NCBI GenBank assembly: GCA_963665115.1
Contig: OY762007.1
Location: 4,160,001 to 4,224,000 of the forward strand
Direction of reading: 5' to 3'
Origin: an uncultured Rivularia sp.
Lineage (GTDB): Bacteria > Cyanobacteriota > Cyanobacteriia > Cyanobacteriales > Nostocaceae
Length of the DNA: 64,000 nt
Below the pieces are notes generated by a model that had not been told where the DNA came from, did no database searches, and saw only the letters and a list, made by a program, of their open reading frames with translations. Positions 3,023 to 57,775 of the stretch are shown here, one piece after another; the stretch's first letter is position 1, and each line of letters starts with the position of its first letter. A program made the translations under genes and the position numbers.

Positions 3023-3141
3023 CTACACCTCTAGAAATGGATGAGTTAGAAGCACTTCTCGTTGAGTTCGGTATCTTGGATGATGATACCAAGAACGCAG
3101 ACGTAATTGGTAAAAAAGCTGAAGAAGTTCCTGCTACCTAG
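3023..3141 (+). CDS. nifH: Nitrogenase iron protein NifH, C-terminal fragment only
   Basis: [38 protein letters not shown], directly upstream of nifD; absent from ORF track. Confidence 0.9.
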
Positions 3142-3164
3142 TAGTAAGTGATGTCTTAGCGACA

Positions 3165-3211
3165 AAGGGTAAAGCTAAAGGTACAACTAAACGTTATACC
3201 TTTTACCCTTT
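3165..3211 (+). promoter_or_regulatory. Stem-loop in the nifH-nifD spacer
   Basis: aagggtaaa..aaaggta / tacctttt accctt inverted repeat. Confidence 0.45.
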
Positions 3212-3292
3212 ACCTTCTACCAAATGCTTCAATCAACTCTTACTATTCCTCAAATCCCAAGTAGTTACCAGTAGTAAAAAAGGCAGAGAAAT

Positions 3293-3525
3293 ATGTCACC
3301 CGTAGATAAGAAGAACACCGTCGAAGAAAGAAAGCAGCTAGTTAACGAAGTTTTAGACGCTTATCCTGAGAAAGCTAAAAAAAGACGTGCTAAGCACCTC
3401 AACGTCCACGAAGAAGGTAAGAGTGATTGTGGCGTAAAGTCTAATGTCAAGTCTCTTCCTGGTGTAATGACCGCTCGTGGTTGTGCATATGCAGGTTCCA
3501 AGGGTGTGGTTTGGGGTCCGATTAA
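3293..3525 (+). CDS. nifD: NifD fragment 1 (codons 1-78)
   Basis: MSPVDKK...[19 protein letters not shown], then diverges at repeat CGATTAA. Confidence 0.95.
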
Positions 3526-5213
3526 AAATATGTTTTATCTTTAAAATAAAATACCCTAAACTGTTTGTAGAGAACAATTTTAAGCAAATTAAATGTTCTT
3601 TACAAGCAGTTATTTTTTAGGGCATATTTAGGATGAAAAAGGTGCATCAAGAAGATTTAGATGATTTATTTGAATATTTTGAAGTTCCGGCAAGCACCGA
3701 TGGAAGCTACATGGGTACACAAGCTCAGGTGAAAGCAACGCAAGAATATATGGATAAAATAATTGAGGAGAAGCTTACAAATATAAATGCAAGACTCAAG
3801 GCGAGTCAAAGCAAGGTAAGTATTAAAAAAGTTGGAAACACTCTACAGTTAAGAGCTACTCTTCCGTTAAAACCTGGCGATACTAATAAATCGGGGAGAA
3901 CTAGAAAGCAATACTTTATCTCTTTAAGTATTCCAGCGAATTTGAACGGATTAAAAACAGCTGAAGAAGAAGCTAATGAATTAGGCACGCTGATTGCAAG
4001 AAAATGCTTTGAATGGAATGACAAATATCTAGGTATAAATACAAATAAACAGGAGTATAAAACTTTTAAGCAAGTATTAGAAACTTTAGAAAATGAATAT
4101 TTTAGTACTAGAAAAAGAACTATTAAGAGCGAGCATAGTTTTTGGCATTTGTATAAACGATATAAACAATATTTTGAATCAAATTTACCAGTTACCAGTG
4201 AAAATATCATTACAATTATTAGAAATATTGGTTCCCCGACATCTCGCGACCAAGCAATCAGAGTCGCTAGGGTATTTTCTCAAATTCATCAAATAGAAGT
4301 CAATTTCAAAAATTTAAAATTGCCTGTAGTCCCTAATGATAGGTATATACCTTCAGATATTGAAATTACAGAAGCTTTTGGAAAATATAAGGTAAAAGGC
4401 AATAATACAAAAGTAAGGAAAGACTATCGAAACTCTTGGAAGCTACACAGGTTAGTATTTGGACTAATTGCTACCTATGGTTTAAGACCGCGTGAGGTAT
4501 TTAATCAACCCGATTTAGAATGGTTTTTAAGTGATGAAAATACCGATTGTACTTGGAAAGTTCATAAGTCAAATAAGACAGGTTACAGAGAAGTTTTGCC
4601 TTTTATACCAGAATGGGTAGAATTATTTGAATTAAAAAATCCAGAGGCTATTTATTTATTGAATCAAAAAATAGAACAGATAACAAGCTTTCATGAATTA
4701 TCACACTTAGTTCAAACTAATGCTCGATGGTTTAGACGCATTCTAGATCTACCGTTTGAACCTTACGATTTAAGGCACGCTTGTGCGATTAGAGCGCATA
4801 TTCAAGGTTTACCAATCAAAGCATCAGCAGATAATTTGGGGCATTCTGTAGAAATGCATACTAAAGTCTATCAGCGTTGGTTCTCTTTAGAAAATCGCAA
4901 GAAAGTTATGAAATCTGCAATCAACAAAAAATCAGATGAACAGTTAGAAGCTGAAAATATCAGGTTAATGGCAGAAAATCAACAACTGAAATACCAATTG
5001 GATAAATTACGGCAAATTTCATCAAATATTCGCTAAAAGTTCTTCAATTAGGGTAGATTTAGGATTCATCAAACCCAAGCATAATTAGCAATTTGATTTA
5101 CTGTTTTAATTTTTAGGGAGCTTGTTTAGGGTAAATTCAGGTTACTCGACTGCGGAGGTTTGCGAAACTACTGTTATATAGATTTTTCAGCAGTCGAAGA
5201 ATATCACGATTAA
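3519..5213. mobile_element. nifD excision element 1 (1,688 bp; direct repeat CGATTAA at 3519-3525 and 5207-5213)
   Basis: Excision restores GGT CCG ATT AAG GAC ATG = GPIKDM in frame; recombinase is the only gene inside. Confidence 0.92.
3633..5036 (+). CDS. XisA/XisC-like tyrosine recombinase of nifD element 1
   Basis: YGLRPRE, YDLRHACAIR, LGHSVEMHTKVYQRWF motifs. Confidence 0.93.
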   Translation: MKKVHQEDLDDLFEYFEVPASTDGSYMGTQAQVKATQEYMDKIIEEKLTNINARLKASQSKVSIKKVGNTLQLRATLPLKPGDTNKSGRTRKQYFISLSIPANLNGLKTAEEEANELGTLIARKCFEWNDKYLGINTNKQEYKTFKQVLETLENEYFSTRKRTIKSEHSFWHLYKRYKQYFESNLPVTSENIITIIRNIGSPTSRDQAIRVARVFSQIHQIEVNFKNLKLPVVPNDRYIPSDIEITEAFGKYKVKGNNTKVRKDYRNSWKLHRLVFGLIATYGLRPREVFNQPDLEWFLSDENTDCTWKVHKSNKTGYREVLPFIPEWVELFELKNPEAIYLLNQKIEQITSFHELSHLVQTNARWFRRILDLPFEPYDLRHACAIRAHIQGLPIKASADNLGHSVEMHTKVYQRWFSLENRKKVMKSAINKKSDEQLEAENIRLMAENQQLKYQLDKLRQISSNIR

Positions 5214-55344: not shown

Positions 55345-55989
55345 TTTTATTTACTCCCTGTAAATCAATAGATGAAATTTTCGTTTGAGATAGAACAAGT
55401 AGATACAGCGAAGCTAAAGCCGATAGCTCATAAGCATTAACACCTAAGCCAACGCTATTAACAATAAGCATTGACGAAATTTATATTTATCTTCTTGGAA
55501 AGAATTATTCTTGTTTCAAGAAGCGCAAATTCTGTTAATTTTCTACTCAGCCAGAGAATAAACTATGTGACTTGAATAGATTCAAAGAGAACAAACTAAA
55601 TGTGATGATTTCTTCATTTGTTGTAACTGACTTCAGCGTAAATAGTCAATGGTTTAATAAAACTTTAGACATTTACTTATAGTAGTTCTACCAACAGCAT
55701 TATAGATGAGAATCACCGTTTTGAGACGATAGTGGACTCACAAAAAAATATACTGTAAATGCTTTGGGAGCAAGGCTTTCGCTATGCTAAGTCTATAAAT
55801 ATACTAGTTTAACTAATATATATTATCGATTGATTAACACAAATGAATCAATACATACAGCTGTAGAAATTAACTAATTATATTTTATGAATTTTTATTA
55901 ATTAGTTGAAGATACTGATTTTATTAGAAAAACCCGATTTTGTATGCCAAAACCGGGTTGATAATTCTTTTAATAGAGAATTACTGTAT

Positions 55990-56418
55990 TTATACCGACA
56001 ATTTAACGTTATGTTCTTGAGCAATTTGAGAAAGCTTTTCAAACTGCTGCTCGGAAGCCTTAGCGATCAACTCTTCCGCTTGTGTTTCGTCGGTTCCTTC
56101 AGAAGGAAACAAATGCTTTACGTAAAGCGAAACAAAATCAACCATTGCTGGTAGATCGGGTAAAGAATGGTTATCAGCTTGCTTTCCAGCAAATGTCGCT
56201 ACCAATCCAGTTCTGATATCCTTTCTTGTCGTATCCATAAATTGACCAACAAGTTCCGGAATATAGTCTGCTGTTGGTAATTCTCCTAACTTTGTTTCAT
56301 TAGGAGTAAATTCGTATCCTGCTTCCCTAGCTTGTTGAGTAACGCACCACTGAGTAAACTCTTGGAGTGCTTCTTCAGGAAGATTGGCCAGATGTTCGTG
56401 TAATGCTTTGTTCGACAT
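55990..56418 (-). CDS. Hypothetical protein downstream of hupL
   Basis: 142-aa ORF with clean start, co-oriented with hupL. Confidence 0.7.
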   Translation of the reverse strand: MSNKALHEHLANLPEEALQEFTQWCVTQQAREAGYEFTPNETKLGELPTADYIPELVGQFMDTTRKDIRTGLVATFAGKQADNHSLPDLPAMVDFVSLYVKHLFPSEGTDETQAEELIAKASEQQFEKLSQIAQEHNVKLSV

Positions 56419-56439
56419 AGTTAGTTTTTGTATGAATTG

Positions 56440-56612
56440 AATTTGGGGATTGGGGATTGGGGATTGGGGATTGGGGATTGGGGATTGGGAATTTGGGGAT
56501 TGGGGATTGGGGATTGAAGATTGGGGATTGGGGATTGGGAATTGGGGATTGGTAATCGGGGATTGGGGATTGGGGATTGGTAATTGAAGATTAAGGATTG
56601 AGAATTAAGGAT
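56440..56612 (+). repeat. Long STRR1-type heptamer array (GGGGATT)n
   Basis: More than 20 units between hupL and the next gene. Confidence 0.92.
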
Positions 56613-56674
56613 AGGGAGCAAGATGCTCCCACTACTCTCTATATCTCCCATGCCCAATGCCCTATGCCCAATCT

Positions 56675-57775
56675 TTATGCAGTCCGAAAACGCGCTAATT
56701 CTTCACCCGTTTTTGCGTCGTGGGCGTGTACGGTACATACCAAACAAGAATCAAAGGAACGCGCTACATGACCTATTTCTACTGGATCTGTTGAGTCAAA
56801 AACAGGTGTACCGATTAAAGCTTCTTCGATGGGGCCGCGTTTTCCTTCAGCGTCACGAGGACCAATATTCCAAGTCGAAGGAGCCATAATTTGATAATTT
56901 TTAATTTTGCCACCTTCGATATCTATCCAGTGACACAAAGCTCCTCGCGATGCTTCGGTAGCACCCCAACCGCGTCCGTCTTGTTCTTTGGGTTTGATGT
57001 ACCAAGGATCGTTTAAGCGAAATTCTCTGAGACAACGCTCGGCTTGACGGTAAAGCTTAACAACTTCATGGACTCTTGCTAGCTGTCGTAGATGGATACT
57101 AGCACCACCCATTTGCTTGAAAGCGTCAAGGATAAATCCATCATAATGTTGCCAAGTTTCGCCGTGAGTGCCACCTGCTACCAATTGACGCGCCAAGGGG
57201 CCAGCTTCCAAGCGTCCGTAATCGATGTGAGTTACCGCAGTTCCCCAAGAATAGGCCGCATCAAAATCTTTAGCATTGTTTTGAGTAGGTCGAGTATTGC
57301 GATCGTAAGGGTGAACGTCTCCCGTACCTTCGTCATACCAGGAATGTGTGGTGTTTTCCCGAACAAAACCATGATTCATGGGAGTATGAGTATCGCTGTA
57401 GCTGTCATACACTCCACTTTTCATAATCATAGCGGCATTTCGCCCTTCAACGGTGGGTTTTTGATATTTCACTTCATGAGGTAAATATCCCCAAGTGACA
57501 TATTTACCCAAGCCCGCACCATATTTATGCAAACCGATATCCAAACCCATTCGCCAATAAAAACCCAAATCGGAATTAGCATGACTCGGACTTTCATCCA
57601 GCCAAATCATAAAATCCTCATAGGTTTGAATTTCTTCATAGCGTTCCAAAGAACAACCCAACCAAACTGGTTCGAGCCAATTAGTACGGAAATATTCCAG
57701 AATTGACCAAGCGCGGGTTACGTCGGTTAAAGTCGGAGCGCACATCACCCCACCGGGCACCATATAACTGCTATG
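56675..57775 (-). CDS. hupL: Uptake hydrogenase large subunit HupL, 3' fragment
   Basis: HSSYMVPGGVMC...RSFDSCLVCTVH; begins at site CATAGCAGTTATATGG. Confidence 0.96.
   Translation of the reverse strand, partial: HSSYMVPGGVMCAPTLTDVTRAWSILEYFRTNWLEPVWLGCSLERYEEIQTYEDFMIWLDESPSHANSDLGFYWRMGLDIGLHKYGAGLGKYVTWGYLPHEVKYQKPTVEGRNAAMIMKSGVYDSYSDTHTPMNHGFVRENTTHSWYDEGTGDVHPYDRNTRPTQNNAKDFDAAYSWGTAVTHIDYGRLEAGPLARQLVAGGTHGETWQHYDGFILDAFKQMGGASIHLRQLARVHEVVKLYRQAERCLREFRLNDPWYIKPKEQDGRGWGATEASRGALCHWIDIEGGKIKNYQIMAPSTWNIGPRDAEGKRGPIEEALIGTPVFDSTDPVEIGHVARSFDSCLVCTVHAHDAKTGEELARFRTA

Follow-up and report, generated by a model that had tools for sequence, protein, structure and literature searches.

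Hilton 2016 (PMC4874684) leaves two questions about interruption elements open, by what route they gain new targets and whether they behave selfishly or serve regulation. Such elements cut the nitrogen fixation (nif) cluster of an uncultured Rivularia sp. (GCA_963665115.1, contig OY762007.1; genome G000, assembled as a single contig, C1, of 8.69 Mb). The window analysed here is a stretch of 64,000 nucleotides (nt), G000:C1:4160001-4224000, and positions without prefix refer to it. A sequence-only reading of this DNA had described seven Xis-type interruption elements touching positions 3023..57775 and held that at least six excisions are needed before nitrogenase can be assembled. We fixed the ends of the elements by mapping intact nif genes of the genus relatives G001 and G009 onto the window, overlaps between gene pieces being the repeats, and named each element by its gene and the nt position of the break (nifK-263 breaks nifK at nt 263). 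All seven elements were found to the base, and their identity as Xis-type elements was confirmed by repeats, restored frames and a recombinase for each. The five complete ones do sum to 37,113 bp (1,688 + 29,852 + 1,837 + 1,850 + 1,886), the four minimal units of 1.7-1.9 kb (1,688, 1,837, 1,850 and 1,886 bp) each carry a recombinase gene, and in-silico joining gave the proteins foreseen for NifD (502 aa), NifN (436 aa) and, after a one-base fix, NifK (511 aa). The figure of six excisions is true but too low, as coding sequence is cut by eight elements and the nifB leader by a ninth.

The single nif cluster thus holds nine elements, three in nifH, two each in nifD and nifK, one in nifN and one in the nifB leader; two of the nifH elements and the leader element lie upstream of the window, and three further elements interrupt hupL, hupS and coxA outside the cluster. 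We think it very probable that these nine are self-excising recombinase inserts. Each of the twelve elements brings a tyrosine or serine recombinase gene of its own, which lies close to one end and points into the element, although three of the twelve genes (xisA and those of nifH-362 and hupS) are frameshifted as assembled. Perfect direct repeats of 7-20 bp bound 11 of the 12, with removal restoring the frame, the exception being hupS. The split genes (nifH, nifD, nifK, nifN, hupL, coxA and hupS) match intact orthologues in pieces, and where relatives lack an element, their sequence is joined at the same repeats. Seven of the nine nif recombinases are XisA/XisC-like tyrosine enzymes, one is another tyrosine integrase (nifH-425) and one is a large serine recombinase (nifH-776). 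The GLRPRE / KTG / YDLRHA / NLGH / Y motifs are kept in 8/9 of the genome's own Xis-like proteins, single-base breaks aside, and in a tree of 96 recombinases (at least 380 aa, from 102 found in stretches chosen near nif, hup and cox matches), which has no root to give direction, the proteins cluster by target site.

For the XisA/XisC elements excision is established, as it is for nine events in Calothrix NIES-4101 (PMC4874684, PMC11249958; the latter is Uesaka 2024). By extension, we infer that the inserts described here excise themselves in differentiating heterocysts, each Xis cutting its own 7-8 bp core. Between the predicted -10 box and fdxH the cluster spans 80,844 bp, and a computed 15,876 bp once the nine are gone, so that differentiation would shrink it from 80.8 kb to 15.9 kb. 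No order of excisions is forced, because all repeats of the nine elements are direct and un-nested. The sequence-only reading had also raised the case of a second intact nif cluster elsewhere, and none was found: the whole genome holds one set of nifD/K/E/N plus the nifH pieces, and a search for another nifD/K/E/N/H set left two weak PF00148 matches and a NifH match at 35% identity, which we take to be chlorophyll reductase subunits.

That multiply interrupted nif genes are known, as the earlier reading said, is correct, but its statement that the density is high fails as a claim of novelty, since published Rivularia-genus strains and relatives equal or exceed it. Rivularia-genus strains have 7, 8 and 9 breaks in nifHDKEB (Uesaka 2024 Table S3, PMC11249958), and Hilton 2016 counted up to 11 elements per genome, as well as 44 xis-like genes without an interrupted gene (PMC4874684). 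Across our genus set of 27 genomes, Xis-like matches range from 2 to 17, with 11 in the Rivularia genome and 13-17 in G003, G006, G011 and G015.

Three elements cut nifH into four pieces, the last at 3023..3141 (+ strand, nt 776 to the end), and the joined NifH of 297 aa is identical to that of G001 at 296 residues. The nifH-362 element (1,836 bp, repeat ACTTAGA, upstream of the window) contains an Xis-like recombinase that is frameshifted as assembled. In nifH-776 (21,885 bp, repeat CTACACC, G000:C1:4141138 to window position 3022) a large serine recombinase occupies the left end (4141213-4142595). The nifH-425 element, also upstream (1,729 bp, 14-bp repeat), has a tyrosine integrase at G000:C1:4139266-4140696 (L054:13266-14696, - strand) with a best blastp E value of 0.037 against the six Xis proteins of the window and a PF00589 match at 1.2e-9; having failed this similarity test, it appears unrelated to the XisA/XisC family. 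No piece of nif, hupL or coxA lies within 1.5 kb of any of its six closest out-of-genus loci.

The nifD gene lies in three pieces on the + strand (3293..3525, 5207..6343 and 36185..36341), and the joined protein matches a relative's 504-aa NifD at 482 of 502 residues. The first interruption, nifD-227 (3519..5206, + strand, 1,688 bp, repeat CGATTAA at 3519/5207), consists of a recombinase only, an Xis-like tyrosine enzyme of 467 aa at 3633..5036 (+ strand); its site and repeat coincide with those of the nifD 227 variant in Hilton 2016 (PMC4874684). The second, the XisA-type nifD-1353 element (6333..36184, 29,852 bp, repeat GGATTACTCCG at 6333/36185), carries xisA at 34702..35965 (- strand), with 94% DNA identity to the intact G001 gene and a C run at 34865 lengthened by one base. 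Its cargo includes an NRPS-like gene, acyl-CoA ligases, an EF-G paralogue (23247-25337) and a superoxide dismutase; the part at 6966-20226, with an FAD oxidase, an oxidoreductase, acyl-CoA ligases, a methylisocitrate-lyase-like gene and an NRPS-like gene, is partly common to G001.

In nifK, two elements stand almost side by side. Piece 1 (36453..36724, + strand) contains a C run at 36557 with one base in excess and is followed by nifK-263 (36716..38552, 1,837 bp, repeat TCCAAGGCA at 36716/38553; 463-aa recombinase at 37048-38439, - strand), by a micro-piece of 34 bp (38553..38586, + strand) that consists of the two repeats and 17 bp between them and falls within the QGSQGCVAYFR stretch, by nifK-289 (38579..40428, 1,850 bp, repeat TACTTCCG at 38579/40429; 462-aa recombinase at 38926-40314, - strand) and by piece 3 (40429..41676, + strand). 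As assembled, translation stops at 39 aa, and dropping the base at 36557 gives a joined NifK of 511 aa with 505/511 residues identical to a relative. Nesting of the two elements was ruled out, since nifK sequence lies between them and each also occurs singly in relatives; the micro-piece itself recurs in G003, G011, G014 and G015. Within the open-access literature and the surveys of Hilton 2016 and Uesaka 2024, as far as their accessible text goes (the scope of every claim of novelty made here), a pair of nifK elements 17 bp apart looks new, whereas the micro-piece is not the smallest known, because in G031 two elements leave just 23 bp of nifD between them, with 4 bp separating the repeats (L080:2626-2648). 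The boundary at nifK aa 91/92 is already a fragment boundary in two strains of Uesaka 2024 Table S4 (PMC11249958).

The nifN gene is split into pieces at 43729..43848 and 45728..46925 (both + strand) by nifN-114 (43842..45727, + strand, 1,886 bp, repeat CCACGGT in codons 38-40 at 43842/45728), with a 462-aa recombinase at 43963-45351 (+ strand). Of the 27 genus genomes, three (G000, G001 and G003) have nifN interrupted at one shared codon and 22 have it continuous; in one more a contig end cuts it, and in the last it was not found. The elements of the three carriers share 97.5-98.3% DNA identity. A search with NifN residues 1-100 matched 357 of 360 family genomes (G103 and G119 weakly only), and among the matches listed, the best 150 of 937 rows, a split-like score at codon 40, an indirect measure, came only from G000 and G003. 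The gene is absent from the 22 orthologue groups of Hilton 2016 (PMC4874684), and the Fig. 5 legend of Uesaka 2024 states that insertions in nifN were not encountered (PMC11249958); nifN as an interruption target therefore looks new, and its absence from the surveyed targets had not been pointed out in the sequence-only reading. The site is homologous to that of the nifK-258/263 elements, NifN aa 40 aligning to NifK aa 90, with cores CCACGGT, GCAAGGT and CCAAGGC, and the nifN and nifK-258/263 recombinases form one clade with 99/99 support in a 44-row subset tree. The nifN element thus probably arose by a hop between homologous codons of the paralogues nifK and nifN, V-Q-G in the former and V-H-G in the latter.

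Comparison of four sequencing runs (X1-X4, as assembled contigs; X1 share 1.00) bears on the state of this element, the runs of small share (X5-X22) being left aside. In X2, contigs stop at 43848, extend over 43819-45757 and restart at 45728, exactly the four coordinates predicted at k=31 for a coexisting joined nifN; the element is covered at a depth of 61.6 and its flanks at 76.5-77.9. This pattern suggests excision or loss, particular to nifN, in a subpopulation. It is not a general heterocyst signal, since X2 has no break at the ends of nifD-1353 or of the nifK elements.

The ninth element occupies G000:C1:4129637-4132049 (L054:3637-6049; 2,405 bp, repeat ATGAGATA at 4129637/4132042), 255 nt before the nifB ATG of the joined allele, in non-coding DNA that varies by indels among relatives; its Xis-like gene (466 aa) begins 114 bp inside. 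Location within a protein-coding gene, which Hilton 2016 includes in the definition of Xis-type elements, does not apply to it, though with its repeat and its inset Xis-like gene it works in the manner of such an element, and an element in the non-coding nifB leader looks like a new kind of target. Ten of 22 genus genomes carry it and 12 lack it (in G016 only xis and the right end are visible). The 18-mer that it splits, GGAGNGATGAGATAGCAC, is exact in 122/147 out-of-genus family genomes, a count that we used in place of the 26 out-of-genus leader loci, which are top matches and hence biased. Small indels of seven forms affect the core in 10 of the 12 empty genus alleles, kinship making these fewer than ten events; a variable loop offers an alternative account. 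In G062, of another genus, the same motif is occupied by an element of 5,575 bp (repeat AGATAGCA, L125:2788-8370) with a recombinase on a long branch of the XisA/XisC group, the only interruption among ten out-of-genus loci with short leader matches. The nifB leader also contains a near-invariant motif of ~28 nt across Nostocaceae (L055:12273-12321, family loci L099-L124), and the empty leader gave no Rfam match at E up to 1.

Upstream of the leader element are repeated GAGTA/GAGTG motifs and TGATATAAC, predicted from sequence to be CnfR sites and the extended -10 box of nifB, the box preceding the ATG of the joined allele by ~325 nt. In A. variabilis the start of nifB1 lies at -328 behind an extended -10 box, and most of the cluster is driven from there (PMC4284476, PMC8510180). 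If the prediction holds, a CnfR-dependent nifB promoter would read directly into the xis gene of the leader element.

The minimal elements also share their ends. We compared 55 elements with xis starting 98-126 nt from the repeat, taking one per 12-nt site bin (21 bins, ~19 distinct sites). Allowing up to one mismatch, TGTT-N7-AACA occurs in 21/21 bins, against a mean of 2.9 and a maximum of 10 in shuffles and 6.3% of random genome windows; spacers of 6, 8 or 9 are found in 3 bins each. The motif is mostly paired, 31-32 bp apart near +37 and +68, and such a pair is present in 1.0% of random genome windows. Repeats with an 11-bp period directly precede the xis ATG in 19/21 bins (shuffle mean 0.7). 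Three adjacent TGT-N9/10-ACA sites between the repeat and xisA are reported to be bound by NtcA (VF1/BifA). Here three TGT-N9-ACA sites 16 bp apart precede xisA, two of which are kept elsewhere, and the title of Chastain 1990 fits this arrangement. DIF1 (TCCGGA) and canonical NtcA motifs were rejected as end signals, neither being enriched in element ends. Binding of NtcA upstream of xisA is on record (PMC3898017).

These features can be assembled into one scheme. A lineage of minimal elements of 1.7-2.0 kb would have radiated in the genus by target change, one branch crossing between nifK and nifN and another coming to rest in the 5' leader of nifB. Close to both ends, the repeats of 11-bp period would act as accessory (arm) sites, and the TGTT-N7-AACA pair, ~37 and 68 bp inward from the end next to xis, may correspond to the NtcA-type site array described for xisA; a shared array would therefore imply one trigger common to all these elements. 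In its fullest form, the scheme has the leader element transcribed from the master nif promoter and bound to excise itself for proper operon expression, its site invaded twice by unrelated recombinases, the core indels as escape, and about twenty retargeted Xis proteins, the nifK-to-nifN hop included, on one cis scaffold. This fullest form we offer tentatively, rating it somewhat short of an even chance.

Several observations weigh against these interpretations. No joint across any element appears among the joints listed (15 of 24), X1, X3 and X4 contigs run unbroken across nifN, and X2 is itself unbroken at nifD-1353 and the nifK ends. At the element ends, canonical GTA-N8-TAC is absent, the NtcA interpretation depends on the consensus, and the shared motifs are inherited rather than independent. 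For the leader, the nifB -10 box and start site are predictions from motif and distance only, and a simple scan of the element found no terminator, so that transcription may not depend on its removal. The element could then be a tolerated passenger that nifB-promoter transcription reads through, leaving only the eight coding-sequence elements obliged to excise, and its orientation, the same as that of nifB, and the unbroken reading frames fit this. We nevertheless find such a passenger rather unlikely, for the element splits a motif that most out-of-genus family genomes keep exact, its recombinase is intact in the visible parts of 9/10 carriers (split in G003), its end motifs are those of the coding-sequence elements, and in A. 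variabilis without xisA excision downstream transcripts are strongly lower (PMC4284476). For nifN, shared ancestry without a hop, through a free element recognising the GSQG-coding motif, would suit the 57-59% identity between the nifN and nifK-260 recombinase groups and the lack of a root, and the joined nifN of X2 might come from a second strain that never carried the element, as that sample may hold several. Both are unlikely accounts: nifN elements are confined to three genomes, at the identity given above, while nifK-260 elements are present in 13 genus genomes, and the neighbouring X2 contigs are long with 0 other letters, where breaks would tend to appear if a distinct strain made up 20%.

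A further challenge to nine self-excising inserts is that the cluster is dead, its frameshifts real and its elements no longer able to excise. As assembled, nifK (36557), xisA (34865), nifS and the nifH-362 and hupS recombinases are broken, and it counts against us that X1, the run that best covers this sequence and possibly its source, carries both extra bases, at 34865 and 36557, at a depth of ~240. Such breaks extend well beyond nif, however: 153 of 187 G001 open reading frames aligned at >=90% over 90% of their length, and G000 has broken versions of 21 of the 153. A net gain of one base accounts for 18 of the 21, mostly within short homopolymer runs; accC (nt 1067), rpoB (nt 30) and proB are among the broken genes, and a broken accC is unlikely in a living cell. 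Precisely the two bases at 34865 and 36557 are missing from X2 and X3, whose contigs show 0-1 other letters each, and X4 lacks one base at each place (34867 for xisA). The nifK and xisA frameshifts are thus likely systematic sequencing or assembly errors, and a dead cluster seems highly improbable. With ~1 in 7 of the compared genes frameshifted, pseudogene calls in this assembly are unreliable.

Much of the architecture has precedent. Sites in print include nifD 227 and 1353, nifH 429 and 781, hupL 590 and nifK aa 91/92, together with the EF-G cargo (PMC4874684, PMC11249958). As in Anabaena/Nostoc PCC 7120, the nifD-1353 repeat is GGATTACTCCG, the AGCAGTTATATGG core in hupL is identical, and a tyrosine recombinase reads inward from the far end (PMC4874684), whereas the two elements here measure 29.9 kb and 8.7 kb with other cargo and the nif cluster holds nine elements rather than two. 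The elements of Hilton 2016 likewise include recombinase-only units of 1.7-1.9 kb with low GC and xis 110-120 bp from the end, nifD-227 (CGATTA), a serine-type nifH-781 (ACACC) and an EF-G paralogue in a nifD-1355 element, but those tables are without nifN-114, nifK-289, nifH-362, a tyrosine-type coxA-918 and the nifB leader. Calothrix sp. NIES-4101 also has nine recombination events per nif cluster and small pieces (46 bp there, 34 bp here), yet 8/9 of its recombinases are serine enzymes, with two inversions and a forced order, against 8/9 tyrosine and simple excisions only here, and nifB is interrupted there, nifN and the nifB leader here. Sister recombinases on homologous codons of two paralogues make retargeting testable with two recombinases and two 7-bp cores. 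The leader element reveals a target class that gene-centred surveys overlook, next to the promoter driving the whole cluster, and with nifH in four pieces and a 34-bp piece of nifK, annotation and nifH amplicon surveys can be expected to fail in the genus.

Other features surround these elements. The nifE gene (42047..43441, + strand) is uninterrupted; NifE aa 188 aligns to NifD nt 640, and nifE-559/nifD-645 may be a second paralogue pair, the nifD-645 break falling at contig ends (G006, G035) with no recombinase recovered. Heptamer (STRR-type) tandem repeats lie between nif and hup genes at 41830-41880, 43440-43560, 46925-47000 and 56400-56600. The hupL 3' piece (56675..57777, - strand, 20-bp repeat at 57758-57777) adjoins the XisC-type element (57778..64000, on to G000:C1:4226435; 8,677 bp), with xisC at 58031-59347 (+ strand, 438 aa), and the joined HupL has 531 aa. 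The hupS element (approximate ends G000:C1:4227135-4366630, ~139.5 kb, near nt 840, serine recombinase) showed no perfect in-register repeat beyond a few bases; by inspection its first 40 kb resembles a conjugative element, with primase-like and VirD4/Mob-like open reading frames. Two Xis-like genes at G000:C1:525260 and 1767362 had no flanking split gene on inspection. The tyrosine-type coxA-918 element (G000:C1:4666971/4668749, span 4666971-4668763, L159; 1,778 bp; joined CoxA 540 aa) neighbours what we take to be a ferredoxin-domain regulator resembling cnfR/patB, and is kept in G005 (L135; genome 99% complete), where nif genes were not found. Relatives add sites outside Hilton's table, namely nifB 253 and 1258, nifH 30 and 191, nifD 474, 889 and 1368 and a tyrosine-type hupL 83 (loci L057, L069, L082, L089, L090 and L141-L144), with nifH-191 occurring in both orientations.

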